Counted from the stretch's first letter, positions 11,624 through 35,276 are shown. The stretch: DNA of 64,000 bases from an uncultured Clostridia bacterium (GCA_944382875.1 CALWNQ010000045.1:13275-77274); one strand, 5' to 3'. Translations and numbers: made by a program. Notes: generated by a model from the sequence alone, not told the origin.

Positions 11624-11644
11624 AGGGGACTCTCCTTTCACAAA

Positions 11645-12691: not shown

Positions 12692-12896
12692 AAAAGTGCC
12701 TCCTGTTCATGTGTCCGTGCACATCTCAATAGCACCAAAATACCACATCCAGGGCAATCTGTCAATAGAATTTTGCGGAAATTCTTGACAAACTTTGCTT
12801 TCAATGCTTTAATAAAGTTAAACGTGTGCCGGGGCACAACTTTTTTGAAAAAAGGACCCCGCACACCTTTTCCGGAACGAGAGGGAGGTGCTTGGT

Positions 12897-13919: not shown

Positions 13920-13937
13920 AACGGAGGGAGTTTTAGT

Positions 13938-15461: not shown

Positions 15462-15494
15462 AGAAAAGAAAACCCTCCGGCCAAAAGCCGGAGG
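15460..15494 (-). terminator. Intrinsic terminator between the convergent xylB and mreB genes
   Basis: CCTCCGGC-N5-GCCGGAGG hairpin. On the minus strand it is followed by GGTTTTCTTTTCTTT. The plus-strand side has only a weak T tract. Confidence 0.65.
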
Positions 15495-15534
15495 ATTCGT
15501 TGCAAATAAAAGTAACAGAAAGCTCCCAAATTGC

Positions 15535-16551: not shown

Positions 16552-16739
16552 GGAAACTCCTCCTTTTGCAAACAGGTATACCATTATTATACCGCAAATG
16601 GGATGGGATTTCCAATAAAATCCGGTCGAATCGAGAATTTTTTACAATTTCCCTGAATTTTGTGACTTTTCAACCGGATAACAAAAAATTTTTTAGCAAA
16701 ACACACAAAGCGAATTTTATGTAGAAAGGTCGATGCAGA

Positions 16740-17612: not shown

Positions 17613-17624
17613 GAGGAATAGAAA

Positions 17625-18644
17625 ATGAAATTTGTAACATTCGGGGAGCTTCTGCTCCGTCTTTCCCCGGAGGGTGTGGGACGGTTTGTCCAGGCCGACC
17701 GGTTCGGCGCGGTGTTCGGCGGCGGCGAAGCCAATGTGGCGGTGGCGCTTGCCCAGTTTGGGGAGGAGGCGGCCTTTGTCAGCCGGCTTCCGGCTCACGG
17801 CATCGGGGAAGCGGCAATCTGCGCGCTGCGGAAGTACGGCGTGGATGTTCGGGAAGTGCAGCGGGGCGGCAGCCGGATTGGCATTTATTTTCTCGAAAAA
17901 GGGATGGCGCAGCGTCCTTCGGTCGTCGTCTACGACCGGGCGGGCTCGGCTTTTGCGGAGGCGAAAGCTTCGGATTTCGACTGGGAGAAAATTTTGCGCG
18001 GAGCCGACTGGTTCCATTTTTCGGGCATTACGGCGGCGCTGTCACCCGAGCTTGCCAAAGCCTGTGAAGAAGGCGCTGCGGCTGCTCATCGGATGGGGCT
18101 CCGGGTGAGCTGCGACCTGAACTATCGCTCCAAGCTCTGGACAGAGGAGCAGGCACGCCCGGTTTTGCAGCGGCTTGTCCGGAGCGCGGACCTTCTCATC
18201 GGCAATGAGGAGCACATTGGCTCCATGCTGGAAATTGACCTTTCCCGGTTTGAACGCGAGGAAACCAACCTCTGCCGGGAAGGCTGCGAAGCGGTGGCGG
18301 CCGAGGTGACGGCGCGGTACGGCTGCAAAACGGTGGCGATCACCCAGCGGCGGAGCATCACAGCCTGCGAAAACAAGTTCCGCGCCTTTCTGCGGCGCGG
18401 CAGCGAGAGCGCGATGTCGCCGCGGTACACCATTCAGATTGCCGACCGTGTCGGTTCGGGGGACGCCTTTGCAGCCGGCATCCTTTACACCGAAGCGGAG
18501 GGCTTTGCGGTGCAGCATGCGGTGGATTTCGCGGCGGCGTCCTGCTGCCTCAAACACAGCGTCGAGGGGGATTTCTCCCTGATGACGGCGGCCGAGGTGG
18601 AAGCGCTCGCTTCGGGCGGCGGTAGCGGCGCCGTCCAGCGCTGA
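17625..18644 (+). CDS. kdgK: PfkB-family sugar kinase, 2-dehydro-3-deoxygluconokinase-like
   Basis: 339 aa. N-terminal GGGEANVAVAL and C-terminal VGSGDAFAAGILY (PfkB signature 2). Adjacent to eda. Confidence 0.8.
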   Translation: MKFVTFGELLLRLSPEGVGRFVQADRFGAVFGGGEANVAVALAQFGEEAAFVSRLPAHGIGEAAICALRKYGVDVREVQRGGSRIGIYFLEKGMAQRPSVVVYDRAGSAFAEAKASDFDWEKILRGADWFHFSGITAALSPELAKACEEGAAAAHRMGLRVSCDLNYRSKLWTEEQARPVLQRLVRSADLLIGNEEHIGSMLEIDLSRFEREETNLCREGCEAVAAEVTARYGCKTVAITQRRSITACENKFRAFLRRGSESAMSPRYTIQIADRVGSGDAFAAGILYTEAEGFAVQHAVDFAAASCCLKHSVEGDFSLMTAAEVEALASGGGSGAVQR

Positions 18645-21748: not shown

Positions 21749-22009
21749 TCACAGGCGTTCTCCTTTCCGCCGGCTGTCGGCAACCGGCTCCATGTACTCT
21801 TTCTGATTGCAGTGCGGGCAGCGGATGATCTTGCCGCTCACCGCGTTGACTGAGAAAATCATCCGGAGCAGTTTTGGTTTGAAGGCGTATCCGCATTTCG
21901 GACAGACAAAATGCTGTCTTTTGTAAAAATACAGATACACGCCTGCCGCATAGAGGATCGCGGCGAGGACAAGGATCAAAGCGCCGGTTAGGACGGGATT
22001 TTCAAACAT
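21749..22009 (-). CDS. Small membrane-anchored zinc-ribbon protein
   Basis: 86 aa. One N-terminal TM helix (LTGALILVLAAILYAAGVYLYFY), then CPKC-x24-CPHC. Its start overlaps the nspC stop (TGATG). Confidence 0.55.
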   Translation of the reverse strand: MFENPVLTGALILVLAAILYAAGVYLYFYKRQHFVCPKCGYAFKPKLLRMIFSVNAVSGKIIRCPHCNQKEYMEPVADSRRKGERL

Positions 22010-23151
22010 CAGGAAAGCCTCCCCTTGAAATCCTCATAGCCGAACCGTTTGACCAGCCTGATTTCGCCGGATTCGGTTTTCAGGGCGATCGAGGGCAGCG
22101 GCATTCCGTTAAAGGTGTTGGTTTTGACCATGGTGTAGAGGGCCATGTCGCCGAAAACGACCAGATCACCGGGGTTCAGCGGCTTATCAAAGGAGTAATC
22201 CCCGATGATGTCGCCAGCCAGGCAGGTGGGGCCGCCAAAACGGTAGGTGTATGCCTTTTCGCCGGGCTGTCCGCTTTCGAGGACGGGCGGACGGTAGGGC
22301 ATTTCGAGGACGTCGGGCATGTGACAGGCGGCCGAAGTGTCCAGAATGGCAAGATTCATGCCGTTTTTAAAGGTTTCCAGCACGCTCGACACCAGATACC
22401 CGGCGTTCAGAACGACCGCTTCGCCCGGTTCGAGGTAGACTTCCACCTTCCAGCGCTCTTTTAGTCCTTTGACGATGCGGATGAGCTTTTCCCGGTCGTA
22501 GTCATCGCGGGTGATGTGGTGCCCGCCGCCCAGATTCAGCCATTTGAGGCCGGGGATGAACTCCCCGAATTTCTCTTCAAAGGCCGCGACGGTGGTTTCC
22601 AGATCGTCCGAATTCTGTTCGCAGAGGGTGTGGAAATGCAGTCCATCAAGCAGCGGCAGCAGCTCCGGCTCAAAATTCGCGCGGGTTGTCCCCAGCCGGG
22701 AGCCGGGCGCGCAGGGATCGTAGATCGCGTGGCCTTCCTGTGTCGAGCACTCGGGGTTTACCCGGAGCCCCACCTGTTTGCCGGCTTTATGTGCGCGATC
22801 GGCGTACAATCTGAGCTGGCGGCAGGAGTTGAAAACAAAGTGATCGGCGTACCCGAGAAGCTCCTGAAACTCCTCCTCCCGGTAGGCCGGGGAAAAGACA
22901 TGGGTTTCACCGCCGAATTCCTCGTGCCCGAGCCGCGCCTCAAAAAGGCCGCTGGCGGTCGAGCCGGCGAGATATTCCCGCAGAAGCGGGTAGACGGCGA
23001 ACATCGAGAACGCCTTTTGGGCGAGCAGAATTTTGCAGCCTGCTTTTTCCTGCACTTCTTTGAGGATTTCCAGATTCTGCCGCAGCTTTTTCTCATCAAT
23101 CAGGAAAAAGGGGGTGGGAATCCCGCCCCCCAGAAATTCGTTTCTGTCCAT
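22009..23151 (-). CDS. nspC: Carboxynorspermidine/carboxyspermidine decarboxylase
   Basis: 380 aa. PLP-fold motifs LLAQKAFS and LNLGGGHH, and the C-terminal barrel CLAGD, are typical of NspC/CANSDC. Confidence 0.85.
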   Translation of the reverse strand: MDRNEFLGGGIPTPFFLIDEKKLRQNLEILKEVQEKAGCKILLAQKAFSMFAVYPLLREYLAGSTASGLFEARLGHEEFGGETHVFSPAYREEEFQELLGYADHFVFNSCRQLRLYADRAHKAGKQVGLRVNPECSTQEGHAIYDPCAPGSRLGTTRANFEPELLPLLDGLHFHTLCEQNSDDLETTVAAFEEKFGEFIPGLKWLNLGGGHHITRDDYDREKLIRIVKGLKERWKVEVYLEPGEAVVLNAGYLVSSVLETFKNGMNLAILDTSAACHMPDVLEMPYRPPVLESGQPGEKAYTYRFGGPTCLAGDIIGDYSFDKPLNPGDLVVFGDMALYTMVKTNTFNGMPLPSIALKTESGEIRLVKRFGYEDFKGRLS

Positions 23152-24411
23152 TTAGTCCACCAGAACGGGGTTGTCGTTGATCTGCCACGGCAGGCCCCAT
23201 TTGTTGAGCGCTTCCATATACGGATCGGGATCGAACTCCTCGGCGGTGTAAACGCCGGGTTTGAGCCAGTAGCCTTTGAGCATCATCATGGCGCCGATCA
23301 TCGCGGGAACACCGGTGGTGTAGCTGATGGCCTGGGAGCCCACTTCCTTGTAGCACTCCTGATGGTCGCAGACGTTGTAAATGTAGGCGGTTTTCTCCTT
23401 GCCGTCTTTCACACCGGTGAAGATGCAGCCGATGTTGGTTTTGCCGACCGTGCGGGGGCCGAGGGAAGCGGGATCGGGCAGCAGCGCTTTGAGGAACTGG
23501 ATGGGAACAATCTGATGTCCCTCAAATTCGATGGGAGTGGTGGAAAGCATGCCCACATTTTCCAGACACTTCATGTGGGTGAGGTAGCTCTGGCCGAAGG
23601 TCATAAAGAAACGGATGCGTTCCACACCGGGGATGTTTTTGGCGAGCGATTCGATCTCCTCGTGGTGGAGGAGGTACATGTCCTTCTGACCGACCTGGTC
23701 AAAGTTATATTCCCGTTTGATGCTCATCGCGGGAATCTCCACCCAGTGGCCGTTTTCCCAGTAGGAACCGGGAGCGGAAACTTCGCGGAGGTTGATTTCG
23801 GGGTTGAAGTTGGTGGCGAAGGGGTAGCCGTGGTCGCCGCCGTTGCAGTCGAGGATGTCGATGGTGCGGATCTCGTCAAAGAGGTGTTTCTGGGCGTAGG
23901 CGCAGAACACCTGGGTAACGCCGGGATCGAAGCCGGTGCCGAGCAGGGCGGTCAGGCCGGCTTTCTCGAATTTTTCCTTGTAAGCCCACTGGTAGCTGTA
24001 ATCAAAGTAGGCGGAGAAGCCCTCTTCCTTGCAGCGTTTTTCATAAGCGGCTTTCCACTCCGGATCGTCAAGGTTTTCCGGCTCGTAGTTGGCGGTGTCG
24101 AGGTAGTTGACACCGCAGGCAAGGCAGGCGTCCATGATAACCAGATCCTGATAGGGCAGGGCGATGTTCATAACCAGATCGGGTTTTTCCTCTTTGATAA
24201 GGGCGCAGAGCTCGTCAAAATTGTCGGCGTTGACCTGCCGGGTGGTGATTTTGGTGGCAGTTTTGCCCTCCAGTTTCGCTTTGAGGTCATCGCACTTGGA
24301 TTTGGTGCGGGAAGCAATGCAGATTTCGGTAAAAACTTCGCTGTTCTGGCAGCATTTCTGGATGGCGACCGACGCAACGCCGCCGCAGCCAATGATTAAA
24401 ACTTTGGACAT
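23152..24411 (-). CDS. Carboxynorspermidine/carboxyspermidine dehydrogenase (saccharopine dehydrogenase family)
   Basis: 419 aa. N-terminal Rossmann fold VLIIGCGGVASV. Family-typical length, and its stop directly abuts the nspC start. Confidence 0.85.
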   Translation of the reverse strand: MSKVLIIGCGGVASVAIQKCCQNSEVFTEICIASRTKSKCDDLKAKLEGKTATKITTRQVNADNFDELCALIKEEKPDLVMNIALPYQDLVIMDACLACGVNYLDTANYEPENLDDPEWKAAYEKRCKEEGFSAYFDYSYQWAYKEKFEKAGLTALLGTGFDPGVTQVFCAYAQKHLFDEIRTIDILDCNGGDHGYPFATNFNPEINLREVSAPGSYWENGHWVEIPAMSIKREYNFDQVGQKDMYLLHHEEIESLAKNIPGVERIRFFMTFGQSYLTHMKCLENVGMLSTTPIEFEGHQIVPIQFLKALLPDPASLGPRTVGKTNIGCIFTGVKDGKEKTAYIYNVCDHQECYKEVGSQAISYTTGVPAMIGAMMMLKGYWLKPGVYTAEEFDPDPYMEALNKWGLPWQINDNPVLVD

Positions 24412-24430
24412 GGTAAAATCCTCCTGTTTT

Positions 24431-24751
24431 TTATTGTTCAGTAAAAATTTGATATTCCTGCTTGAGTTTCAGAATGGGCAGAGAGACCATTTCCGATAAC
24501 TGTTTGGAAATTTTATCAATAGCAGTTTGGAAAGAAGTGTGTGCAAGTTCCAGTTTCTCCCAGTTGGTGTACACATTCTGTACAACCGGAAGTATCTCCT
24601 CCTCAAAGCGGTAGCAAGCAATATCGTCTATGATTTTGCCGGGGAATTCTGCTGCGATGCCTGCAGCATATTTTTTCCAGTCCGGTAAAGAAAACTGTCC
24701 CGAAGGAAAGCATTGCCGGATATTGGAAAATGTGTCGACGACAGAAAGCAT
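24431..24751 (-). CDS. Hypothetical protein (AT-richer orphan ORF inside the polyamine operon)
   Basis: 106 aa. GGAGG RBS 9 nt upstream of the ATG. Hand-counted GC is about 45% against about 52-55% in adjacent genes. I see no recognisable catalytic motif. Confidence 0.5.
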   Translation of the reverse strand: MLSVVDTFSNIRQCFPSGQFSLPDWKKYAAGIAAEFPGKIIDDIACYRFEEEILPVVQNVYTNWEKLELAHTSFQTAIDKISKQLSEMVSLPILKLKQEYQIFTEQ

Positions 24752-24787
24752 GTCTTGATACCTCCGATGTCTGGAAACGAGTATGGT

Positions 24788-25639
24788 TTAAGATAACGCC
24801 AGCATCATTTCCCGCACGATCTTGCAGGCGACCGCTGTGGAAGCGCCGCTCTGATCGTAGTGGGGGCTTAATTCATTGACATCGCATCCCACGATGTTCG
24901 CTTTGGAGCAGACGAGAGTCACCGCTTCCCGCAGCGTGTTGAAATCCACCCCGCCGGGCTCCGGTGTGCCGGTTCCGGGAAAGACGGAAGGATCGAGAAC
25001 GTCAAGATCAAGTGTGAAGTAAACCGGTCTGCCGCCCAGCTCTGCAAGTTTCTCTGCCAGACCGTTCAGGTCAAATTTGTGGGTGTTGACATGGTCTTTT
25101 CCCCAACGGAACTCCTCCCGGTCGCCGGAACGGATGCCAAACTGGTGGATTTTGCCGTCGCCGATCAGCTCCCAGCAGCGCCGCAGCACGCAGGCGTGGG
25201 AAAGCTCGGCCCCCAGATACTCCTGCCGCAGGTCGGCGTGGGCGTCGAAGTGGATAATCTCAACATTGGAATATTTGGCCTGTGCCGCCCGGAAAGCGCC
25301 CAAGGTCACCAGATGCTCGCCGCCCAGCAAAAAGGGAAGCTTGCCGTCCGTTAAAATAGTTGCCGCGCGTTCCTCAATGTCGGCCAGCGCATCCTCCGGC
25401 TTGCCGAAAGAGAGCTCTAAATCGCCGCTGTCAAAGATTTTACAATCGAGCAGGTCCTTGTCCTGATACGGGCTGTAACTTTCGAGACCATAGGATTCCC
25501 GCCGGATGGCGGCGCTTCCGAACCGGGTGCCGGGGCGGTAGGATGTGGTCGAGTCAAACGGCGCGCCGTAGAGGACGATTTGCGCCTCCTCGTAATCGGC
25601 GTCGCAGCAGAGATAGGTTTCAACGTTCGGGTTCAACAT
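24788..25639 (-). CDS. speB: Agmatinase (ureohydrolase family)
   Basis: 283 aa. Mn-ligand motifs IIHFDAHADL, LGGEH and TLDLDVLDPS. Confidence 0.9.
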   Translation of the reverse strand: MLNPNVETYLCCDADYEEAQIVLYGAPFDSTTSYRPGTRFGSAAIRRESYGLESYSPYQDKDLLDCKIFDSGDLELSFGKPEDALADIEERAATILTDGKLPFLLGGEHLVTLGAFRAAQAKYSNVEIIHFDAHADLRQEYLGAELSHACVLRRCWELIGDGKIHQFGIRSGDREEFRWGKDHVNTHKFDLNGLAEKLAELGGRPVYFTLDLDVLDPSVFPGTGTPEPGGVDFNTLREAVTLVCSKANIVGCDVNELSPHYDQSGASTAVACKIVREMMLALS

Positions 25640-26480
25640 CTTTCAATAACTCCTCTACATAAGCGGGCACATAGAAAGCTCCTTTGTGCAGTGTCGTGGT
25701 GTAATACCGGCATTTGAGGCCGCGGGCGTTCCACCGTTTTTCGTCCAGGTCGCGGAGCGGGTGGTATTTTTTGGTGGAGAAGCCGAACAGCCAGTGGCCG
25801 GACGGATAGGTGGGGATGTGTGCCTGGAATACCCGGCTGAACGGGAAGGATTCCACAATTCGTTTGTGAGCCTTTTGCATGGCAAGGGCGTCCTCCTTAT
25901 AAAAGGGGCTTTCGTGCTGGTTGACCATGATGCCGTCCTCTTTGAGAGCCTTGAAGCAGTTGCCATAAAATTCACGGGTAAACAATCCTTCGCCGGGGCC
26001 GAACGGATCGGTCGAGTCGACGATGATGAGGTCGTAGCAGTCCTTGCACCAGCGGATAAATTTGAGCCCGTCTTCATAATAGATTTTCACGCGGGGATCG
26101 TCGAGCGAGCAAGCGGTCTGCGGCAGATATTCTTTGCAGACTTCCACCACCTGGGGATCGATTTCGACCATGTCGATCTGTTCGATGTCATCATACCGGC
26201 AGAGCTCCCGGATGACGCCGCCGTCGCCCGCTCCAATGACCAGCACCCGCTTGACATGGGGATGTACCGCCATCGGCACATGAACAATCATTTCGTGGTA
26301 GATAAATTCGTCCTTTTCAGTCAGCATCATATAGCCGTCCAGGACGAGAAAGCGCCCAAACTCCGGGGATTCAAAAATGTCGATCCGCTGGAAGTCGCTC
26401 TGGCCGCTGTAAAGCTGGCGGTCGACGCGGATGGAGAGCTTGACATTGGGGGTGTGCATTTCGGAGAACCAGAATTCCAT
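25620..26480 (-). CDS. speE: Polyamine aminopropyltransferase (spermidine synthase family)
   Basis: 286 aa. VLVIGAGDGGVIREL, DLIIVDSTDPFGPGEGLF and the N-terminal tetramerisation segment WFSE. Confidence 0.9.
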   Translation of the reverse strand: MEFWFSEMHTPNVKLSIRVDRQLYSGQSDFQRIDIFESPEFGRFLVLDGYMMLTEKDEFIYHEMIVHVPMAVHPHVKRVLVIGAGDGGVIRELCRYDDIEQIDMVEIDPQVVEVCKEYLPQTACSLDDPRVKIYYEDGLKFIRWCKDCYDLIIVDSTDPFGPGEGLFTREFYGNCFKALKEDGIMVNQHESPFYKEDALAMQKAHKRIVESFPFSRVFQAHIPTYPSGHWLFGFSTKKYHPLRDLDEKRWNARGLKCRYYTTTLHKGAFYVPAYVEELLKDVEPER

Positions 26481-26481
26481 A

Positions 26482-27933
26482 TTACGCTCCTTTCAGGACA
26501 TTCAAACGGGTGATGTCGGGATCTTCCGGCCCGGTCATCGAGCAGCCTTTTTCCTTGGCATAATGAATATAGTCCAAAATCTGCCGGGTAATCCGCTCGC
26601 CGGGGGTGAGGATCGGGATGCCGGGCGGGTAGCACATGACAAATTCGCTGCAAACCCGTCCCTCGGTTTGCTCAATGGGCAGCGATTCCTTGTCGGCGTA
26701 GAACGCCGCGTGGGGCGAAACAGCCACATCGGGGGCGATGTACTCCTGGCTCATCATCCCCATACTGTCCCGCTCATAACGGCGGCGGATCTCAGCCAGC
26801 GCGGCTACCAGACGCTCGACTTCCCGTTGGCGGTCGCCGATCGAGAGGTAGGCAAGGAAGTTTCCGAGGTCGCCGAATTCAATCTGGATGTCATATTCGT
26901 CCCGGAGAATGTCATACACTTCAATACCGGCTAGTCCCATATCGAGGGTGTGAACCGAGAGCTTGGTCCGGTCAAAATCATAGATGCTGTCGCCGTTTTT
27001 GAGTTCGTCCGCAAAGGCGTAGTAGCCGCCGATGGCGTTGATTTCCTCTCTTGCGTAGTCGGCAAGCTCCACCACCTTTGCAAAAGCTTCCTTGCCGCGG
27101 ATGGCAAGGTTCCGGCGGGAGATATCGAGACTGGAGAGCAAAAGGTAGGAGCCGCTCGTCGTCTGGGTGAGGTTGATAATCTGGCGGACATGTCCCTCGC
27201 TCATAGCGGGGCCAATGAGCAGGAAGGAGCTTTGAGTCAGGCTGCCGCCCGATTTGTGCATCGAAACGGCGGCCATGTCGGCGCCGGCCGCCATCGCCGA
27301 AACGGGAAGATTTTCTCCAAAATAAAAATGGGTGCCGTGCGCCTCGTCTGCAAGGCAGTACATCCCATTCTCGTGGGCAATTTTCACAATGGCACGCAGG
27401 TCGGAGCAGATGCCGTAATAGGTGGGGTTGTTGACCAGAACGGCTTTGGCGTCCGGGTTCTGGCGGATGGCCTCTTTCACGTCGGCAAGCTTCATCCCAA
27501 GCGGGATGCCGAGCCGTTCGTCGCAGTCGGGATTGACGTAAACCGGGATTGCGCCGCAGAGGACCAAAGCCCCCATGACGCTCCGGTGAACGTTGCGGGG
27601 GAGGATGATCTTTTCGCCGGCTTTGACGACCGACAAAACCATGCTCTGTACCGCCGAGGTGGTGCCGCCCACCATCAAAAAGGCATGGGCCGCGCCGAAT
27701 GCGTCGGCCGCCAGCTCTTCCGCTTCCCGGATGACCGAGATGGGGTGGCAGAGGTTGTCGAGCGGCTTCATCGAGTTGACGTCCATGCTGACGCACTTTT
27801 GGCCCAGCAGCTCGACAAGCTCCGGGTTGCCGCGGCCGCGTTTGTGGCCGGGGACGTCGAACGGGACGACCCGCATTTTCTGAAAGCGTTCCAGTGCCTC
27901 ATAAATCGGGGCGCGGTGCTGATTTTTTTCCAT
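26482..27933 (-). CDS. speA: Orn/Lys/Arg decarboxylase family enzyme, probable arginine decarboxylase
   Basis: 483 aa. PLP-lysine motif AAVSMHKSGGSLTQSS and fold-type-I major domain. The substrate is inferred only from the adjacent agmatinase. Confidence 0.75.
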   Translation of the reverse strand: MEKNQHRAPIYEALERFQKMRVVPFDVPGHKRGRGNPELVELLGQKCVSMDVNSMKPLDNLCHPISVIREAEELAADAFGAAHAFLMVGGTTSAVQSMVLSVVKAGEKIILPRNVHRSVMGALVLCGAIPVYVNPDCDERLGIPLGMKLADVKEAIRQNPDAKAVLVNNPTYYGICSDLRAIVKIAHENGMYCLADEAHGTHFYFGENLPVSAMAAGADMAAVSMHKSGGSLTQSSFLLIGPAMSEGHVRQIINLTQTTSGSYLLLSSLDISRRNLAIRGKEAFAKVVELADYAREEINAIGGYYAFADELKNGDSIYDFDRTKLSVHTLDMGLAGIEVYDILRDEYDIQIEFGDLGNFLAYLSIGDRQREVERLVAALAEIRRRYERDSMGMMSQEYIAPDVAVSPHAAFYADKESLPIEQTEGRVCSEFVMCYPPGIPILTPGERITRQILDYIHYAKEKGCSMTGPEDPDITRLNVLKGA

Positions 27934-28694
27934 TAGTAAATATTCCTCCCGCTGAAAATTTCGATCATCTCGCTGCGCAGGCTGTTCATAATCGAAAGCC
28001 GGGTGCTCGGCGGGAGCTCGTAGACGTCGGTTTTAAAGAGGTAGTTCTGGAGGTCGATCTCCTTAATCATCATATTGGTGTGGAAGAGGTTGGCGCTGTA
28101 TACGTTGATGTCCACCGCGTCGTAGCGCTGAAGCGTTTCATTGGCGATATAGTCCTGGATGGAGGTCATTTTGTGATCCATAAAAAGCTTTTTGCCGGTG
28201 ACGTCGCGGGTAAAGCCGCGGACGCGGTAATCAAGGGTGATGATGTCCGAATCAAAGGAGCCGATCAGGTAGTCGAGGGTGGAGAGCGGGGTGATCTCGC
28301 CGCAGGTTGCCACGTCGATGTCCACCCGGAAAGTGGCCAAACAGGTGTCGGGGTGATATTCGGGGTAAGTGTGGACTGTCACATGGCTCTTATCGAGGTG
28401 GGCGACCTGGGTTTCGCCGCCAACCGGGATCATCGAGCCTTCTGCGATCAGAATGGTGACCGAGGCTCCCTGCGGATCGTAGTCCTGGCGGGAAACATTC
28501 AAGACCTTTGCCCCGATCATGTTGGTGAGGGTGGTGAGGATGTTGGTCAGACGCTCCGAGTTATATTGTTCGTCGATATAGGCGATATAATCCTTCTGCT
28601 CCCGCGGTGTTTTGGCGTAGCAGACGTCATAGATATTAAAGCTCAGCGATTTTGTCAGGTTGTTGAACCCATATAAGGTCAGTTTCTGATCCAT
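27933..28694 (-). CDS. speD: S-adenosylmethionine decarboxylase proenzyme (long, E. coli-type)
   Basis: About 254 aa. KLTLYGFNNLTKSLSFNIYD N-terminus and self-cleavage/pyruvoyl site AHLDK-SHVTVHTYPE. Start set at ATG 28694 behind GGAGGGAG. The track extension to 28838 is Arg/Pro/Cys-rich leader sequence. Confidence 0.85.
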   Translation of the reverse strand: MDQKLTLYGFNNLTKSLSFNIYDVCYAKTPREQKDYIAYIDEQYNSERLTNILTTLTNMIGAKVLNVSRQDYDPQGASVTILIAEGSMIPVGGETQVAHLDKSHVTVHTYPEYHPDTCLATFRVDIDVATCGEITPLSTLDYLIGSFDSDIITLDYRVRGFTRDVTGKKLFMDHKMTSIQDYIANETLQRYDAVDINVYSANLFHTNMMIKEIDLQNYLFKTDVYELPPSTRLSIMNSLRSEMIEIFSGRNIY

Positions 28695-28935
28695 AAAGCT
28701 CCCTCCGGGACGATATTTTTGCAAAACAAAAAGCAGACGATTGCACGACAGCGAATCGCCTGCGTCAGTCAGACACCTGTATCCCGGCGGAAGAGCCCGT
28801 CCGCCGTTTTTGATCCTGTGGAATGATACAGATTGCATCTCAGAGCCTATATAGCAAATAATCTTACTTTTACTACTCTTATTGACCGTTTCACAAGTTG
28901 ATGTGCCGCATGCACACTGGTTATAAAGTAACCAA
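28695..28935 (-). promoter_or_regulatory. Long 5' leader of the polyamine operon
   Basis: About 235 nt separate the candidate promoter from speD. The leader is AT-rich and has no ORF. It contains the CGGCGG-N10-CCGCCG hairpin (28785-28806) and the terminator above. Confidence 0.45.
28722..28763 (-). terminator. Intrinsic terminator inside the speD leader (attenuator candidate)
   Basis: On the minus strand, GCAGGCGA-N15-TCGTCTGC (8 bp, one G-U) is followed by TTTTTGTTTTGC. It ends 28 nt before the speD start codon. Confidence 0.6.
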
Positions 28936-28966: not shown

Positions 28967-29138
28967 TGTCGGCAGTTGACCCGGCTGTCCGTCTGGCCTT
29001 GACCTGCAAAGGAAGCAGGTGGTCAAGAATATTTGCATGGAGAAGAAGCAACAGCATTCCATACAAACTTATGATAACAGAATGGGGGGGAATTGTCAAG
29101 ACATTTTTCGGCAAAATCCGGTTTGGTAAACCGAAAAG

Positions 29139-29207: not shown

Positions 29208-29249
29208 AAAGGTAAGTTGTGATTTGGAGAAATGGAAAGGAGTATCAAA

Positions 29250-30260
29250 ATGACATCACGAGAAAAGGTCTTGGAGATCTTTAACCGCAAAAGCACCAAC
29301 GGCGGTGCGATGTGGACGGGACATCCAAACGACGCTACGGTGCCGATCTACGCCGAAAAATGGGGGATCGAGCCCACACGGGAAGCGATCTTCCAGTTTT
29401 TAAACGACGACTGCCGGTGGTTTACGGCCGACAGCGGCTACCATCATCCGCAGGGGCTGCCCGCCATCGACCCGGCCTATGGGACTGAGCGGCACACCCT
29501 GAGTGCCGAGGGCTGCTTTGCCAATGCCGAAACGGTGGCCGACATCGAAAAATACCCCTGGCCAAACCCCGACTACTGCGATTTCACCGAAATCTACCGC
29601 CAGATTGAGCAGTTCCCGGATAAAATGGTCTTTACCGGGATGTGGAGCTGCTTCTTCCATCAGGTTGCCGATTTCTTCGGGATGGAAAACTATTTCATTA
29701 AGATGTATGAGTGCCCCGAGGTCGTGGAAGCGCTGACCGAGCGGATCGTCGACTACTATGTGGCGGCCAACGAGAAGTTCTTCTCCCAGCTTGGCGACCG
29801 GGCCGATGTCATGTTCTTCGGCAACGATTTCGGCACCCAGCTTGACCTTTTCATTTCCCCGGAGCTGTTCCGCAAGTTTGTCATGCCTTCCTTTAAGCGG
29901 CTGATCGCGGTGGGCAAAAAGTACAACAAAAAGATCATGCTCCATTCCTGCGGTTCCATCTACCGGATCATCCCCGACCTGATCGACGCCGGCGTGGATA
30001 TTCTCCATCCGATCCAGGCGCAGGCGGCGGGCATGAGCGCGCAGGATCTGAAACAGTATAAAAACGACCTCGCCTTTGTCGGCGGCATCGACGCCCAGAC
30101 CTTTTTTGTCAACGCGACTCCCCAGCAGATCAAGGACGAGGTACACCGCGTCCGGGACATCCTGGGCCCGAACATTGTCATTTCACCCAGCCACGAGGAA
30201 GTGCTGCCCAATGTACCGGCCGAGAACATCCTGGCCATGGCCGAAGCGGCGAGAGATTAA
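29250..30260 (+). CDS. Uroporphyrinogen decarboxylase (URO-D)/MT2 methyltransferase-like family protein, paralog 1
   Basis: About 336 aa. URO-D-fold pattern with an HxCG motif (MLHSCGSIYRIIPDLIDAGVDILHPIQ). Start at ATG 29250, 8 nt after AAAGGAG. Confidence 0.7.
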   Translation: MTSREKVLEIFNRKSTNGGAMWTGHPNDATVPIYAEKWGIEPTREAIFQFLNDDCRWFTADSGYHHPQGLPAIDPAYGTERHTLSAEGCFANAETVADIEKYPWPNPDYCDFTEIYRQIEQFPDKMVFTGMWSCFFHQVADFFGMENYFIKMYECPEVVEALTERIVDYYVAANEKFFSQLGDRADVMFFGNDFGTQLDLFISPELFRKFVMPSFKRLIAVGKKYNKKIMLHSCGSIYRIIPDLIDAGVDILHPIQAQAAGMSAQDLKQYKNDLAFVGGIDAQTFFVNATPQQIKDEVHRVRDILGPNIVISPSHEEVLPNVPAENILAMAEAARD

Positions 30261-30269
30261 GGAGGAGCT

Positions 30270-31316
30270 ATGTTTACACCTGATTACACCAATCTGGAAA
30301 AAAGTGCCCGCAACATCGAAGCGCCGCGGATGCCGCTTTATGAGCACATCATTTGCGACGAAATGATGGAGGCGGTGCTCGACAAAAAATTTGCCGACCT
30401 AATCCACGGCGATTTTGAGGACAAAAAGGAATATTTCCGCAACTACTGCGAGTTTTTTAAACGAATGGGCTACGACACCGTGTCTTTTGAGCAGTGCATT
30501 GGCCCGGTCATGCCGGGCAGCGGCGCGCTGGGCGGCCACAAAGAAGGCGTCATTCAAACACGCGAGGACTTTGACAAATACCCGTGGGCAGAAATCCCCG
30601 GCTGGTATTTTGAACGCTACGCGGAGGATTTCCGCGCTCTGGCGGCGGTCATCCCGGAGGGGATGAAGGCGATCGGCGGCCCCGGCAACGGCATTTTCGA
30701 GTGTGTTCAGGATGTGGTGGGCTATATGAACCTCTGCTACATCTCAGCTGACGATCCCGACCTCTATGCCGCTCTGTTTGCCAAAGTTGGCGAGACCAAC
30801 CTTGCCATCTGGGAACGCTTCCTGGAGGAGTTCGGCGACCTCTACTGCGTCTGCCGGTTCGGCGACGACCTGGGCTATAAGAGCAACACGCTGCTCCCCC
30901 ATACCGACATCATCGACAATATTATTCCGCAGTACCGCCGTATCATCGAGGCGGTCCACCGCCACGGCAAGCCGTTCCTGCTTCATTCCTGCGGCTGCAT
31001 CTTTGACATTATGGAAGAGCTGATTGCCGCCGGTATTGACGCCAAACACTCCAACGAGGACCAGATTGCGCGGTTCCCGGTCTGGGTGGAAAAATACGGC
31101 GACCGGATCGGCAACTTTGGAGGCATCGACACCGACGCGGTCTGCCGCCTTTCCGAGCCGGAAATGCGGGAGTACATCACCGACGTGGTGCGCCAGTGCC
31201 GCGGGCACGGCGGATTTGCCTTCGGTTCCGGAAACTCGATCCCGGACTATGTTCCGGTGGAGGGATATTTGAATATGAACCGCATTGCGCGGGAAATCAG
31301 GGGTGATTACAAATGA
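30270..31316 (+). CDS. URO-D/MT2 methyltransferase-like family protein, paralog 2
   Basis: 348 aa with the same fold pattern and an HxCG motif (LLHSCGCIFDIMEELIAAGIDAKHSNE). AAGGAGGAG RBS. Confidence 0.7.
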   Translation: MFTPDYTNLEKSARNIEAPRMPLYEHIICDEMMEAVLDKKFADLIHGDFEDKKEYFRNYCEFFKRMGYDTVSFEQCIGPVMPGSGALGGHKEGVIQTREDFDKYPWAEIPGWYFERYAEDFRALAAVIPEGMKAIGGPGNGIFECVQDVVGYMNLCYISADDPDLYAALFAKVGETNLAIWERFLEEFGDLYCVCRFGDDLGYKSNTLLPHTDIIDNIIPQYRRIIEAVHRHGKPFLLHSCGCIFDIMEELIAAGIDAKHSNEDQIARFPVWVEKYGDRIGNFGGIDTDAVCRLSEPEMREYITDVVRQCRGHGGFAFGSGNSIPDYVPVEGYLNMNRIAREIRGDYK

Positions 31317-34105
31317 TTCAGGTTGTACATGATTTTGACCGGTTCGCGTTTGTGGAAGAAGCGGCCGGCAGCCGTCCCACCGCCTGGCAGCGGCGGATCA
31401 TCGGCGAGCTGCGGTTTACCGAGGTCCTTTCCGAGGAAGCTTCGGGCGCTTATAATGGTCTCATCGAAGCGGCGCTGTCCGTTTTGAAAGAGGGGCTGAA
31501 AGCGGAGGGCGTCCTCTCCAATTCGGTCTGTGAAAAGGCGGAGCAGGCGCTTCTGCCGCTGGCGGAGGAAGCCAAGAGCTATGAGTACCTCTGCGCCGGC
31601 CACGCGCACATCGACATGAACTGGATGTGGGGTTTCCACGAAACCACCGGCACCACGGTGGATACTTTCCGGACGATGCTTCAGATTATGGAGGAGTATC
31701 CCGGCTTCAAATTCTCCCAGTCCCAGGCTTCGGTCTACCGGATTCTGGAACGGTTCGCGCCCGAAATGCTCGAGGAGGTCAAAGCCCGCGTCGCCGAGGG
31801 ACGCTGGGAGCTGACCGCTTCGGCCTGGGTGGAAACCGACAAGAATATGCCGAGCGGCGAGAGCCTTTCCCGCCATATCCTCTATGCAAAACAGTATTTG
31901 TCCAAACTCTTCTCGATCAGCCCCGACAGTCTGGAGGTTGACTTTGATCCCGATACCTTTGGCCACAGCCAGAATATCCCGGAAATTGCTTCGCGCGGCG
32001 GCGTGAAGTACTACTATCATTGCCGCGGCCGCGTTGGGGAGCAGGTGCTCAACCGCTGGCGTTCGCCCTCCGGAGCCGAGCTCATCATCTACACCGAGCC
32101 GTTCTGGTACAACGGCGAAATCGACACTACTGCCGCCGAATTTGCCCCCGAGCTTGCCCGTCGGACCGGTTCCCGCACCCTGCTCAAGGTTTACGGCGTC
32201 GGCGACCACGGCGGCGGACCAACCCGCCGCGACCTCGATTTCCTGATCGAGATGAACAGCTGGCCGGTCTACCCGAAGTTCACCTTCTCCACTTTCCACG
32301 AGTATTTCCACACCGTCGAAGCGCGGCGGGAAACGCTGCCGGTCATCGAGGGCGAGATCAACTTCCTCTGCGACGGCTGCTACACCACCCAAACCCGGAT
32401 CAAAGCCGGAAACCGCCGTTCCGAGCGTATTCTGCAGGACGCCGAGCTGTTTGAAGCGGCTTCTTCGGTCTGCGCCGGCGGCAAAGCCCGTCCGGAGATT
32501 TTTGCGGAAGCCTGGGAAAAGGTGCTCTTCAACCACTTCCATGACATCATCCCCGGTTCCGGCGTGACCGAAACCCGTGAATACGCCTCCGCCCTCTATC
32601 AGGAGGTTGCCGCGGCAGCCGACAGCCGCCGCAAACAGGCGTTCTATAACATCACCAGCCAGATGGACACCAGCGCCCTCATCGAGCCGGAAGACGTTTC
32701 CTTCTCCCGTGCCGAAGGCGGCGGAGCGGGGTTTGGTGAGTGCGGATATTCCGCCGGTAAAAACCGCATCTTCCACCTCTTCAACCCCTCTCCCTGGGAT
32801 CGTACCGAAAACGCCGAGTTCGTCGTCTGGGATTACGAGGGCCGGGAAGACCGGATGGCGGTGCGGGATACCGCCGGAAACTGGCTGGATACCCAGAAGA
32901 TCAAGAGCGGCGATTACTGGGGCCACCATTACGCCATTCTGGCTGCAGAAGTGACTGTTCCCGCAGCCGGCAGCGCCGCCTATATTGTGGGGGAACGTCC
33001 CGTTTCGTGCGGATGCAGCTTTTTCAACGACATGCGGGTGCAGGCTCCCGAAACCTTTGTCCTCGAAAATAAAAAAATCCGCGCCGAATTCTCTCCGGCA
33101 ACGGCAGGGCTTGTGTCGCTGGTGCGCAAGGACACCGGCCGCGAGCTGATCCCCACCGGAAAGGAAGCGCGCTTTGAGCTTGCTACCGAAGCGGTTTGGA
33201 AAGAAGTTACCGGCTGGGACGGCGGGATGTCCGCCTGGTTCACCGGGCGGCAGAAAGCGGTCACCCCGCTTCAGAACGTTGAGCTGCGGCAGCTGCCCGG
33301 CGGCGCGGTGCGCGGACGTCTGGAGATGAAAGCAAACTTTGGCAAGGCCTCTACCTTCCGGGCCGAGATCAGCCTTGACCAGAACAGCGAAAACCTCCGG
33401 TTCGCGGTGAGCTGCGACTGGCGCGAGTTCGGCAGCGATGCCGACGGCATCCCCTGCCTGCAGTTCACTCTGCCGGAATCCCTCGACGACGGCAGCTTCC
33501 TGTTTGATGTGCCGTTTGGCTTTGTCCGCCGCGAAGGCCGGGAGATGGACCTCCCCGCCAACCGCTTTGTTATGGCGGGCGACAGCGCCGACGCGCTGAT
33601 CCTCAGCGCCCAGACCAAGTACGGCTACCGCTGCGGCAGCGGCCGGATGGCGGTCACCCTGATCCGCGGCGCCTACAATCCCGATCCCACCCCCGAAATC
33701 GGCACCCACGAGATTGCCATTTCGGTGCTGGCTCCGGCTGGCGGCAAGGCAGACAGCGCTTATTCCCGTCTGGTACAGGACAGCGAGCATCCGCTCTTTG
33801 CCATTTCGGGCCGCGCCCACAAGGGCACCCTTCCGGTTTCGGGCAGCTTCCTCCATCTGGAAGAAGGCAGCGCGCTGCTCTCCGCCTGCAAGGTTTCGGA
33901 AGACGGCAAAGCTCTGATTCTCCGCCTGTATGAAGCGGACGGCAAGGATTGCGAAGCTGCGGTAACCTTCTGCTGCGCGCCTAAGTCGGCAGTGGCGGCA
34001 GATCAGCTGGAGCGTCCTGCTGACGGCTGCGTCAAACTGGACGGAAACCGTGTTTCAGTCAAAATGGCGCCGTACAGCGTTGCGATCCTGCGGGTAGAAC
34101 TATAA
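31313..34105 (+). CDS. GH38 alpha-mannosidase (cytoplasmic type)
   Basis: 930 aa, no signal peptide. GHAHIDMNWMWG catalytic-domain signature, DTFGHS, YGVGDHGGGPT. The ATGA overlap with the upstream gene indicates translational coupling. Confidence 0.85.
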   Translation: MIQVVHDFDRFAFVEEAAGSRPTAWQRRIIGELRFTEVLSEEASGAYNGLIEAALSVLKEGLKAEGVLSNSVCEKAEQALLPLAEEAKSYEYLCAGHAHIDMNWMWGFHETTGTTVDTFRTMLQIMEEYPGFKFSQSQASVYRILERFAPEMLEEVKARVAEGRWELTASAWVETDKNMPSGESLSRHILYAKQYLSKLFSISPDSLEVDFDPDTFGHSQNIPEIASRGGVKYYYHCRGRVGEQVLNRWRSPSGAELIIYTEPFWYNGEIDTTAAEFAPELARRTGSRTLLKVYGVGDHGGGPTRRDLDFLIEMNSWPVYPKFTFSTFHEYFHTVEARRETLPVIEGEINFLCDGCYTTQTRIKAGNRRSERILQDAELFEAASSVCAGGKARPEIFAEAWEKVLFNHFHDIIPGSGVTETREYASALYQEVAAAADSRRKQAFYNITSQMDTSALIEPEDVSFSRAEGGGAGFGECGYSAGKNRIFHLFNPSPWDRTENAEFVVWDYEGREDRMAVRDTAGNWLDTQKIKSGDYWGHHYAILAAEVTVPAAGSAAYIVGERPVSCGCSFFNDMRVQAPETFVLENKKIRAEFSPATAGLVSLVRKDTGRELIPTGKEARFELATEAVWKEVTGWDGGMSAWFTGRQKAVTPLQNVELRQLPGGAVRGRLEMKANFGKASTFRAEISLDQNSENLRFAVSCDWREFGSDADGIPCLQFTLPESLDDGSFLFDVPFGFVRREGREMDLPANRFVMAGDSADALILSAQTKYGYRCGSGRMAVTLIRGAYNPDPTPEIGTHEIAISVLAPAGGKADSAYSRLVQDSEHPLFAISGRAHKGTLPVSGSFLHLEEGSALLSACKVSEDGKALILRLYEADGKDCEAAVTFCCAPKSAVAADQLERPADGCVKLDGNRVSVKMAPYSVAILRVEL

Positions 34106-34121
34106 TTGGACAAATTGAAGA

Positions 34122-34154
34122 GGCTGCGGCTTGGGAGAAAGCCGCGGCCCTTTT
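34122..34154 (+). terminator. Intrinsic terminator/attenuator between GH38 and URO-D-like paralog 3
   Basis: GGCTGCGGCTT-N6-AAGCCGCGGCC (11 bp, one G-U) followed by CTTTT. Only 18 nt separate it from ATG 34173, which leaves no room for a promoter. Confidence 0.55.
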
Positions 34155-34172
34155 GCATGGGAGGTACAAACC

Positions 34173-35240
34173 ATGAGTATTCATTTTACAGCGGATCAGT
34201 GGGAAGAGGTGCGCCGCCTCTACCGCGGCTGGTGGGACGGGAGCAGCGCTTCCCCGGTGGTCAAGCTCTGTTCCGCCTGCCACGATCCGGGGCGTCCGCA
34301 GCCGAAAGCGCCGTTTCCGGACCAGGATAACTGTCACGATTTCTCCCTTTCGCCCGAAGAGGTGGTGGACCGGGTGGATTATGAGCTGAGCCGGCTGGAG
34401 TTTTACGGCGGCGCCTATCCCTGTTGGAATTTCAGCTATTTCGGGCCGGGTGTGTTGGCGGCATTCTGTGGGGCAAAGCTCGACAATTCGAGTGGCCGGG
34501 TGTGGTTTTTTCCGCCCGAAAAGCTCCCGATTGACCGTATTCACATTCACTATGATCCCGAAAACCGCTGGGTGCAGCGGGTGAAAGCGCTCTACCGGGC
34601 CGGACAGGAGCGGTGGGGCGGCAATGTGCTGATGACCATGCCGGATCTGGGCGGCATCCTCGATGTGGTGGCGTCATTTCGGGGGAGTGAGGACCTGCTG
34701 CTCGACCTCTACGACGCGCCGGAGGAGGTCCTCCGGCTCTGCCGGGAGGCGCACGACGCCTGGATGGAAGCCTACCGGGACTTAAATTCGGTGCTCTTCC
34801 CCGCAAACCCCGGTTATTCGGACTGGTCCGGGATTTACAGCGAAAAACCCTCCTACATTCTCCAGTCGGATTTCTGCTATATGATCGGCAACCCGATGTT
34901 CCGAGAGTTTGTGCTGCCGGACCTCAAACGAGGCTGCACCGAGCTTGCAAACACTGTCTACCATCTCGACGGGATCGGGGAGCTGCCGCACCTCGATGAT
35001 GTGCTGGCAATTCCGGAGCTGAACGGCGTCCAGTGGGTTTACGGCGACGGGCAGCCGACCGCGCCGCACTGGCTCGATGTCTACCGGCGGATTGCGGAAA
35101 CCGGCAAAGGAATCTATCTTTTCTGCAGCCGGGAGGATTTTGACATCGTGCGCCGGGAGGTTCCGGAGGGACGGTATTACATCGACCTTGGACAGTGCCG
35201 CCCGGAGGAAGCAGAAGGAATTTTATCCTGTTATCGATGA
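34173..35240 (+). CDS. URO-D-like family protein, divergent paralog 3
   Basis: About 355 aa. Overall URO-D-like pattern, but HLDG replaces HxCG (NTVYHLDGIGELPHLDDVL). Start at ATG 34173 behind GGGAGG. Confidence 0.5.
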   Translation: MSIHFTADQWEEVRRLYRGWWDGSSASPVVKLCSACHDPGRPQPKAPFPDQDNCHDFSLSPEEVVDRVDYELSRLEFYGGAYPCWNFSYFGPGVLAAFCGAKLDNSSGRVWFFPPEKLPIDRIHIHYDPENRWVQRVKALYRAGQERWGGNVLMTMPDLGGILDVVASFRGSEDLLLDLYDAPEEVLRLCREAHDAWMEAYRDLNSVLFPANPGYSDWSGIYSEKPSYILQSDFCYMIGNPMFREFVLPDLKRGCTELANTVYHLDGIGELPHLDDVLAIPELNGVQWVYGDGQPTAPHWLDVYRRIAETGKGIYLFCSREDFDIVRREVPEGRYYIDLGQCRPEEAEGILSCYR

Positions 35241-35243
35241 GAA

Positions 35244-35276
35244 AAACGGAGCCTTTTGTGGGGCTCCGTTTTGTTC
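35244..35276 (+). terminator. Intrinsic terminator of the URO-D-like/GH38 operon
   Basis: ACGGAGCC-N8-GGCTCCGT followed by TTTGTT. Starts 4 nt after the stop. Confidence 0.7.

Follow-up and report, generated by a model that had tools for sequence, protein, structure and literature searches.

Three families of URO-D/MtaA-fold proteins beside an apparently cytoplasmic GH38 alpha-mannosidase in an uncultured Clostridia bacterium

Within a 64,000-nucleotide stretch of DNA from an uncultured Clostridia bacterium (GCA_944382875.1, CALWNQ010000045.1:13275-77274; hereafter the window), four open reading frames (ORFs) on the plus strand between positions 29250 and 35240 encode an alpha-mannosidase of glycoside hydrolase family 38 (GH38) and three proteins of the URO-D superfamily, which we call par1, par2 and par3 (Table 1). 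The closest relatives of the window belong to Candidatus Merdivicinus (Oscillospiraceae, chicken gut). A first-pass annotation, made from the sequence alone, had described this cluster, and our ORF calls bear out its gene order, its coordinates and the coupling of par2 to GH38, in which the ATG of the mannosidase gene overlaps the TGA of par2 as ATGA. The same annotation called par3 divergent. Because par3 shares its strand with the other genes, the word can refer to sequence only: par3 is diverged in sequence, but it is co-directional in orientation. An intrinsic terminator downstream of par3 marks the end of the cluster.

For par1 we favour the ATG at 29250 over the one at 29232, because homologs begin MTSREK and GGAAAGGAG precedes 29250. 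The ribosome-binding site of par2, AGGAGG, is placed 9 nucleotides past the par1 stop. The spacer of 67 nucleotides between GH38 and par3 holds a G+C-rich hairpin and a second ribosome-binding site, GGGAGG, 8 nucleotides upstream of par3. When the translations were read directly, no signal-peptide-like hydrophobic stretch was seen at the N-termini of par1, par2, GH38 or par3, and the interval from 28.8 to 35.4 kb has no gene for a corrinoid protein, activase, transporter or regulator. On both of these points the first-pass annotation was right.

Table 1. Features of the par1-par2-GH38-par3 cluster in the window and, in the last five rows, members of a ~410-residue URO-D-fold family at other loci.
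Feature	Coordinates	Strand	Length	Remarks
par1	29250-30260	+	336 aa	URO-D-family protein; Pfam URO-D 3.4e-20
par2	30270-31316	+	348 aa	URO-D-family protein, second conserved family; Pfam URO-D 1e-11
GH38 alpha-mannosidase	31313-34105	+	930 aa	four GH38 Pfam domains
G+C-rich hairpin	34122-34149	+		between GH38 and par3; 11 bp, then CUUUUG
par3	34173-35240	+	355 aa	no Pfam family; diverged URO-D/MtaA fold
Intrinsic terminator after par3	35243-35272	+		A-tract, 13-bp stem, U-tract; dG -22 kcal/mol, z -5.75
~410-aa family member, locus L019	8668-9909
~410-aa family member, locus L061	5781-7028
~410-aa family member, locus L067	8740-9981
~410-aa family member, locus L170	9118-10347
~410-aa family member, locus L173	3604-4836

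Judged by their sequences, par1, par2 and par3 are three separate, widespread and strongly conserved orthologous families without a solved or named relative. par1 and par2 match the Pfam URO-D family (PF01208) with 72.8 and 44.9 bits (cut-off 23.9), the matches starting at profile positions 102 and 137. The two proteins are 27% identical (BLASTP, 1e-23), and hhalign scores their families at 99.8%. Homologs of par1 are 75-95% identical across many Clostridia genera and 38-65% identical in Spirochaetota, Bifidobacteriaceae, Latescibacterota, Pirellulales and Bacteroidales; those of par2 are 66-78% identical. Searches of PDB sequences, both single-sequence and profile, gave a marginal MtaA match for par1 and no match for par2 or par3. 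An AlphaFold2 model of par1 (pLDDT 86) retrieved MtaA and UROD structures in Foldseek (TM 0.65-0.71), with MetE and BHMT as the next-best matches (TM 0.4-0.55). Homologs of par1 and par2 are widely named 'uroporphyrinogen decarboxylase', which is probably a mis-annotation.

The third protein is more remote. par3 has no Pfam or NCBIfam match, its BLASTP alignment to par1 spans 88 residues only (E = 9e-6), and none of its 1,139 homologs (50-73% identical) has a Pfam domain. The evidence that par3 belongs to the URO-D/MtaA fold comes from family comparison (hhalign 89% against the par1 family) and from structure prediction. An AlphaFold2 model built with 26 homologs (pLDDT 95.5, pTM 0.92) has as its top Foldseek matches MtaA 4ay8/4ay7 (E 1e-8, TM 0.60-0.62) and then seven UROD structures; over the MtaA and UROD matches together, E runs from 1e-8 to 2e-5 and TM from 0.5 to 0.62. 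Global hhalign comparison of the par3 family with the par1 and par2 families yielded no alignment. Several JGI records call par3 homologs '5-methyltetrahydrofolate--homocysteine methyltransferase', probably in error, and NCBI calls them hypothetical proteins. The claim that three URO-D-superfamily proteins surround the mannosidase thus holds, for par3 by predicted fold only. The profile and Foldseek searches that the first-pass annotation had proposed place all three in this fold; par3 nevertheless lacks a Pfam URO-D match, and the MtaA/CmuA cut-off is reached by none.

Indeed, these proteins are neither HemE nor true members of MtaA/CmuA. The hemE model (TIGR01464; cut-off 303 bits) gave no match at E <= 0.01 for par1, par2 or par3, and a regular-expression search for the UROD signature P-x-W-x-M-R-Q-A-G-R found it in none of the three. 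Against the MtaA/CmuA model (TIGR01463; cut-off 235 bits) par1 scores 60.3 bits; the best score of par2 is 18.8 bits, to the related PRK06252 model, and par3 has no match. The NCBIfam scores of par1 and par2 are therefore about a quarter of the cut-off or less, and identity to the MtaA and UROD structures in the Foldseek matches is 13-16%. The first-pass annotation was correct in stating that the paralogs are not haem-pathway decarboxylases, a view to which the start of the Pfam matches near profile position 100 also contributes. It went too far in taking the H-x-C-G motif as the mark of MtaA/MtbA-type enzymes, given these scores and the replacement of a third ligand described below.

The motifs themselves are present as first read: LHSCGS in par1 (H232/C234), LHSCGC in par2 (H239/C241) and YHLDG in par3 (H264/D266). 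HMMER aligns L-H232-S-C234-G of par1 on L-H-I-C-G of MtaA, and S-P-S-H315-E-E of par1 on A-P-G-C-G. We take the His and Cys of LHICG and the Cys of APGCG to be the zinc ligands of MtaA (Hoeppner et al. 2012). In the par1 family (77 sequences from six phyla, down to 38% identity) H232, C234, G235, H253, P254 and Q256 are invariant, as are D193, Q197, Q283 and E316, and H315 is kept in 76 of the 77; the conserved blocks are H232-x-C234-G, H253-P-x-Q256 and S-H315-E316. By alignment, this His-x-Cys...His...His/Glu constellation sits at the zinc-ligand positions of MtaA and forms a predicted metal site. The par2 family conserves H239-S-C241-G, K-H260-S-N-E-D and S-G-N322-S; it retains H239-x-C241, likewise invariant, and, on the following strand, H260, with an invariant Asn322 at the position of par1 H315. 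Invariant in the par3 family are H264-x-D266-G, Q231-x-D233, Q287-W288 and many Trp, Gln and Asp residues. The extended local alignment of par3 is one residue off register at the motif, so that we equate its H-x-D with H-x-C from the shape of the motif and its position in the secondary structure. The suggestion of a zinc site at H-x-C plus a third ligand survives in part: the par1 H-x-C falls on MtaA ligands, but the downstream Cys of MtaA has become His315 in par1 and Asn322 in par2.

The mannosidase is complete and, to judge from its sequence, apparently cytoplasmic. Pfam recognises the four GH38 domains (N-terminal catalytic, middle, C-terminal and C2), each above its gathering threshold, and the motifs HAHIDMNW, DTFGH and FHD of the metal-binding and nucleophile region are invariant across orthologs; with no signal peptide, the protein agrees with its earlier description as a cytoplasmic GH38 alpha-mannosidase. 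Its nearest solved relatives are Ams1-type cytosolic mannosidases (E 7e-51), although good alignment with solved structures is confined to the catalytic N-domain. In its four domains and its metal and nucleophile motifs it resembles the known cytosolic GH38 enzymes (Ams1-type; Streptococcus pyogenes SpGH38, 2wyh; E. coli MngB). However, it is not an equivalog of MngB: it scores 86.7 bits against 1138 in the equivalog test (NF007331), with the N-terminal part only.

How closely are these genes associated elsewhere? Our par1 survey comprised 79 loci from one-genome-per-species contigs (74 after collapsing Merdivicinus), and our GH38 survey comprised 80 metagenomic loci encoding orthologs of the window GH38; the P values for the par1 counts take at most 3 GH38 genes per 3000-gene genome, and all backgrounds are assumed ones. 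A GH38 gene lies within 10 kb of the par1 ortholog at 13 of 79 loci, or 8 of 74 with Merdivicinus collapsed (P ~1e-4), and within two genes of it at 6 of 74 (P ~6e-7). GH38 is the commonest same-strand neighbour of par1 (7 genes at 6 loci), followed by URO-D genes (5) and a long unrelated tail. Direct adjacency of GH38 and par1 occurs in at least five lineages outside Merdivicinus, and the GH38 neighbours come from two subfamilies (42-72% and ~25% identity). Moreover, a URO-D-fold gene from one of four different families directly adjoins GH38 at 6 of the 80 GH38 loci (P ~7e-4). The association of GH38 with URO-D-fold genes is real but facultative.

Within Merdivicinus the cluster takes three forms: par1-par2-GH38-par3, as in the window; par1-GH38-MerR(-)-MatE-par3; and par1-GH38-par3 with a different URO-D-like gene, of 403 codons' worth of protein (403 aa), between GH38 and par3. 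On the basis of these three arrangements, par1, GH38 and par3 are kept together in the genus and par2 is not. par3 directly abuts GH38 only in the window; in Massiliimalia it is solitary between nrdDG and the pur operon, and it stands alone in other genera. The operon is thus not a conserved unit, and the module is loose. The set stoichiometry proposed in the first-pass annotation finds no comparative support, par3 being detached from GH38 in the sister species and alone elsewhere. The 403-aa protein that sits between GH38 and par3 in a sister Merdivicinus species is a fourth URO-D-family paralog (L176 6669-7880; also L177 and L178), in which TSDG replaces H-x-C; metagenome locus L092 has a copy of it, 63% identical, immediately upstream of a GH38 gene. 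Among the same-strand neighbours of the GH38 metagenome loci (L089-L168) there was no constant partner or transporter of the GH38 subfamily. Those neighbours include PFL-like/glycyl-radical enzymes, in 3 of 86 proteins scanned, and also DUF2961, GFO/IDH/MocA and AraC proteins.

URO-D-fold genes also cluster with one another. A second gene of the superfamily is present at 21 of 74 par1 loci, and at two of these 21 it is part of a triple of par2, par1 and a member of a ~410-aa family (Table 1). By hhalign this family is a further diverged URO-D fold, with 93% for the par3 family and 82% for par1. Its members repeatedly adjoin par1 and par2 orthologs, and at several metagenome loci they stand directly beside GH38. 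No Pfam or NCBIfam model covers the family, which carries a conserved YYGCC motif.

Sugar genes recur around par1. Its other frequent neighbours are AraC regulators (7), GFO/IDH/MocA dehydrogenases (5) and PfkB kinases, and some loci include a KDPG aldolase. One locus (L033) reads GH38, GH38, par1, IclR, KDPG aldolase, PfkB, and two others (L025 and L029) read PfkB, GH38, par1. In a Porphyromonas cangingivalis metagenome-assembled genome (MAG; L085 563-11174) a full member of the par1 family lies in an operon of RhaT-like permease, par1, DeoC aldolase (131 bits, above its cut-off), PfkB, PS_pyruv_trans-like protein, esterase, GH92 alpha-mannosidase and GH94, which ties the par1 family to a second, unrelated family of alpha-mannosidases. 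A radical-SAM activase-like gene follows this operon. Catabolism of xanthan oligosaccharides or pyruvyl-mannose, considered because of the GH92, GH94, esterase and PS_pyruv_trans genes, was rejected, as it has no literature support and rests on a single locus.

The surroundings of par2 relatives are of the same kind. One is in an operon of LacI, D-lyxose isomerase, PfkB and mannitol-dehydrogenase-family genes, which faces a sugar ABC transporter flanked by two more URO-D genes. Others stand beside GH95 and GH43, again with two more URO-D genes; between a xylose-isomerase-like protein (AP_endonuc_2) and GH127; and next to UxaA, UxaB, AXE1 and sugar ABC genes. The link to sugar catabolism is therefore real at the level of the families. 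The first-pass picture of a cytoplasmic sugar-processing module is supported by these recurrent neighbours, but not as a conserved four-gene unit. In full-text searching of the literature, some queries of which were too broad, no paper was found that links URO-D-like genes to GH38, mannosidases, glycoside-hydrolase clusters or sugar demethylation.

Corrinoid proteins are scarce in these surroundings. We scanned for B12-binding motifs in 89 sequences, namely the window and 88 loci (1.39 Mb), including the 74 dereplicated par1 loci. The single credible corrinoid protein is that of an Alistipes sp. MAG (L084 5213-15269), in a polysaccharide-utilisation locus that reads SusD, an FGE-sulfatase-domain protein, a RhaT-like permease, a par1-like gene that is a true family member, and AraC. 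On the other strand, 2-4 kb off, are an MtaA-like URO-D protein (134 bits to PRK06252), a Met_synt_B12-like protein and the corrinoid protein, which is MtgC/MtbC-like (203 bits to MtgC-type models). The arrangement is a hint that corrinoid methyl transfer and a par1-type enzyme can operate side by side in a glycan context. A search of related neighbourhoods for a distal corrinoid protein, as first proposed, succeeded there and in no other of the 89 sequences; at the other scanned loci the corrinoid system is not normally encoded in cis with par1. A B12 methyltransferase system within a Bacteroidales glycan locus is unusual in its own right, and we regard L084 as a candidate for the anaerobic demethylation of glycans that are methylated and sulfated.

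What might these proteins do? The reactions known from the UroD superfamily are decarboxylation of uroporphyrinogen and alkyl transfer, the latter carried out by MtaA/MtbA/MtsA, by O-, S- and halogen-demethylases, by MetE and by epoxyalkane:CoM transferase (PMC10418091). Because this chemistry coincides with an invariant metal-type site and a sugar context, a sugar-acting metalloenzyme is the most economical reading, and par1, par2 and par3 are probably accessory metalloenzymes of sugar catabolism. We propose that the GH38 exo-mannosidase would be accompanied by three accessory (beta/alpha)8-fold enzymes from separate URO-D/MtaA families. These metal-dependent enzymes would handle the small sugar that serves the glycosidase as substrate or leaves it as product, ahead of the kinase and aldolase. 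Our leading guess for their reaction is O-dealkylation, in which mannose or manno-oligosaccharides modified by methyl ethers would lose the methyl group. Either the ether oxygen or an accepting thiol would be activated at the conserved metal centre, and the methyl would move straight onto a thiol, in the manner of MetE, or onto a corrinoid protein whose gene lies elsewhere. Each of the three paralogs would serve a different substrate or step, and they would not form a complex of fixed stoichiometry. Such a model would also account for the different URO-D-fold families that accompany different glycosidases. As a whole, with demethylation included, this account of the cluster as a cytoplasmic set for processing alpha-mannosides is tentative, and we give it somewhat less than an even chance; sugar O-demethylation as the specific chemistry, though ahead of the other candidates, is less likely than not.

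Several observations weigh against this account. par2 is absent from the sister species of Merdivicinus. Seen from the mannosidase, the co-conservation that the first-pass annotation looked for is weak: GH38 is the top neighbour of par1, but a par1 ortholog is present at 1 of 80 GH38 loci, and a URO-D-fold gene within 8 kb of GH38 at 14 of 80 is unremarkable against a generous background (P = 0.12). The contexts of most par1 orthologs are variable and uninformative. par2 lacks the third ligand, and par3 contains no Cys whatever. With a corrinoid protein in only 1 of the 89 sequences, ether demethylation would have to proceed without its usual methyl carrier in cis, and no source of methylated mannose was identified for the chicken gut. 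The kinase and aldolase neighbours suit an isomerase-type step equally well. Lastly, the function of all three families is argued from predicted fold, motif and context.

That isomerase-like or other sugar-converting step is the main rival. par1, par2 and par3 would catalyse a metal-dependent monosaccharide conversion (aldose-ketose isomerase, epimerase, lactonase or dehydratase) that feeds the PfkB kinase and the aldolase, with no alkyl transfer. In Porphyromonas, par1 occupies the isomerase slot of a transporter-isomerase-kinase-aldolase layout (RhaT, par1-like, DeoC, PfkB); the gene orders of L033, L025 and L029 read in the same way, and GFO/IDH/MocA dehydrogenases are divergent from par1 at 5 loci. 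A His-rich site with a single Cys is nearer to a Lewis-acid centre than to the sulfur-rich zinc site of alkyl transfer, and the missing corrinoid protein in cis also fits. Yet the UroD superfamily has no known isomerase or dehydratase (PMC10418091), par2 relatives already stand beside dedicated isomerases (Lyx_isomer, AP_endonuc_2), which would make a further isomerase redundant, and clusters with multiple paralogs are harder to account for. On balance we think such a conversion rather unlikely. A role as uronate isomerase or dehydratase, suggested by UxaA, UxaB, KdgK and Eda neighbours, was retained only as a form of it. The juxtaposition might instead be incidental and lineage-specific, with the paralogs in unrelated metabolism (for example methyl or thiol metabolism connected with the adjacent operon that yields polyamines and methylthioadenosine) and GH38 a lone mannosidase. 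The loss of par2 in sister species, where MerR and MatE separate par3 from GH38, the solitary par3 of Massiliimalia, the majority of par1 and GH38 loci, which are without each other, the very variable neighbours of both families and the polyamine operon that adjoins par1 throughout Merdivicinus all point that way. Coincidence sits poorly with the adjacency of par1 to two GH38 subfamilies in at least five other lineages, with GH92 in Porphyromonas, with four URO-D-fold families directly adjoining GH38, and with the persistence of par1, GH38 and par3 through three rearrangements; the polyamine link is confined to the genus. We judge it unlikely. For the same reason of synteny confined to Merdivicinus, methylthioadenosine salvage for the polyamine operon was rejected.

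The two remaining explanations keep to the named relatives of the superfamily. par1 and par2 could be classical corrinoid-dependent MT2 or MT1 methyltransferases whose corrinoid protein, activase and partner methyltransferase have their genes elsewhere in the genome; the methyl donors would then be non-sugar compounds, for instance methoxylated aromatics, methylamines or methylthiols. In profile searches they match the MtaA/CmuA models best, their H-x-C lies on the MtaA zinc ligands, a family member is found near the Alistipes corrinoid module, and clusters with several MtaA-like paralogs are known (PMC10418091). But 60 and 19 bits are far from cut-offs of 235-244, another residue stands in place of the third Cys ligand, the surroundings are those of sugar genes rather than one-carbon or folate genes, and at no scanned par1 locus except that of Alistipes is there a corrinoid protein, though such systems are normally clustered; we consider this very unlikely. 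As for a genuine HemE of haem or sirohaem biosynthesis, the Pfam URO-D matches of par1 and par2 and the UROD structures among the Foldseek matches are what it would predict, and par1 and par2 do share the fold and Pfam family of UROD (TM 0.6-0.7). However, with no hemE match, some 100 unmatched N-terminal profile positions, no UROD signature, 13-16% identity to UROD structures, and three paralogs beside a mannosidase with no haem genes nearby, HemE is effectively refuted. An H-x-C metal motif is, to our knowledge, no feature of the cofactor-less UROD.

Comparison with known systems sharpens the proposal of sugar-acting metalloenzymes. MtaA/MtbA (MT2; PDB 4ay7/4ay8) have the same (beta/alpha)8 URO-D fold and are the best Foldseek match of par1 and par3, and par1 and par2 share the strand-end motif L-H-x-C-G that supplies the His and Cys ligands of MtaA. 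They differ in the third ligand, which is His in par1, Asn in par2 and absent in par3 with its H-x-D, and the window cluster lacks a coenzyme M context and genes for a corrinoid protein or activase; its neighbours are sugar genes. A type I mlp cluster comprises several MtaA-like proteins (>25% identity to coenzyme M methyltransferase), a corrinoid protein and a RACE activase (PMC10418091); here the identity to MtaA is 13-16%, and neither partner is encoded in the cluster. The corrinoid-dependent O-demethylases OdmB, VdmB and MtvB are methyl-ether cleavers of the UroD superfamily, like par1-par3 in fold, and gene clusters with several UroD-superfamily or MtaA-like paralogs are known (PMC10418091). 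By contrast with the window, O-demethylase and mlp clusters are always equipped with a RACE/Ram activase and a corrinoid protein, and their substrates are aromatic ethers or not known, whereas the context here is glycoside hydrolases. MetE (core-MetE) and BHMT belong to the same clan and are very distant from par1 (TM 0.4-0.55); they transfer methyl groups without a corrinoid and so provide a precedent for a corrinoid-free reaction. MetE and BHMT are zinc enzymes that use His-x-Cys and two further ligands (cf. PMC539065). The ligand set of par1, unlike theirs, has one Cys, and there is no folate or homocysteine context.

A functional analogue exists in marine bacteria, where a cytochrome P450 6-O-methyl-D-galactose demethylase removes a sugar methyl ether inside a glycan-utilisation locus and thereby lets catabolism go forward (PMC6292453, PMC12316285). 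It differs from par1-par3 in being oxygen-dependent, in its unrelated fold and in its release of formaldehyde. According to a 2025 paper, the mechanism of anaerobic sugar demethylation is still to be discovered (PMC12316285). In a wider and distinctly speculative version of our proposal, which we doubt more than we believe, par1, par2, par3 and at least two more diverged families, the ~410-aa and the 403-aa one, would be the missing oxygen-independent sugar O-demethylases, an unrecognised carbohydrate-modifying set of anaerobes. They would strip methyl ethers from mannose or other sugars inside the cell, beside cytoplasmic glycosidases, and hand the methyl group to a thiol or to a corrinoid protein acting in trans.

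What is apparently new is that UroD-superfamily enzymes occur in a carbohydrate setting not described before, and seemingly with no corrinoid gene in cis. Methyl ethers on sugars stand in the way of glycan breakdown, and the sole known sugar demethylase is the oxygen-dependent P450; three to five conserved UroD-fold families in glycoside-hydrolase and sugar-kinase loci of gut anaerobes are cloneable candidates for demethylation. Whatever their chemistry, the families have thousands of members, two are without a Pfam model, and members are at present probably mis-annotated as 'uroporphyrinogen decarboxylase' or 'methionine synthase'. Annotation of gut Clostridia, Spirochaetota and Bacteroidota would gain from corrected names.

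The expression of par3 can be read in more than one way. The hairpin between GH38 and par3 is a real structure, as first described: it has 11 base pairs (8 of them G-C) followed by CTTTTG, a short U-tract of 4 U, and a 76-nucleotide fold gives dG -30.4 kcal/mol (z = -4.2). It could be a weak terminator, an attenuator or a structure in a 5'-untranslated region. The assertion that par3 has no room for a promoter and can be expressed by read-through only is unsupported, for TATAAT at 34101-34106 makes a perfect -10 hexamer that overlaps the stop codon of GH38, and TTGCGA lies upstream of it by 15 nucleotides, in the last GH38 codons; a consensus promoter scan had skipped the pair because of its spacing. 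Since these elements are present, an internal promoter with the hairpin in the par3 5'-untranslated region is as plausible as read-through.

Beyond the cluster, a PrsA-like lipoprotein gene and MgtC lie downstream. Some 11 kb upstream is a sugar-catabolic block (10142-18644) with genes for a fucose-isomerase-C-domain protein, aldose 1-epimerase, a LacI regulator, an FGGY kinase, a KDPG aldolase and a PfkB kinase; no link to the cluster was established. An ORF of 739 aa at 1053-3272 (+) has a coding-like GC3 signature and no Pfam match at E <= 0.001. Upstream of par1 on the opposite strand is a complete polyamine-biosynthesis operon (22009-28838, minus strand), which includes speD and encodes AdoMet decarboxylase, Orn/Lys/Arg decarboxylase, spermidine synthase, agmatinase and carboxynorspermidine dehydrogenase and decarboxylase-like proteins; it is syntenic with par1 throughout Merdivicinus and not outside the genus. 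In its minus-strand leader is a match to the Rfam ldcC RNA / SpF59 sRNA (RF02440) at 28969-29025 (69.3 bits against a gathering threshold of 37.2; E 2e-11), and on the same side a near-consensus promoter-like site, TTGACA-17-TATCAT with TG, at 29099-29071. Together these two features fill much of the 410-nucleotide spacer between the polyamine operon and par1.

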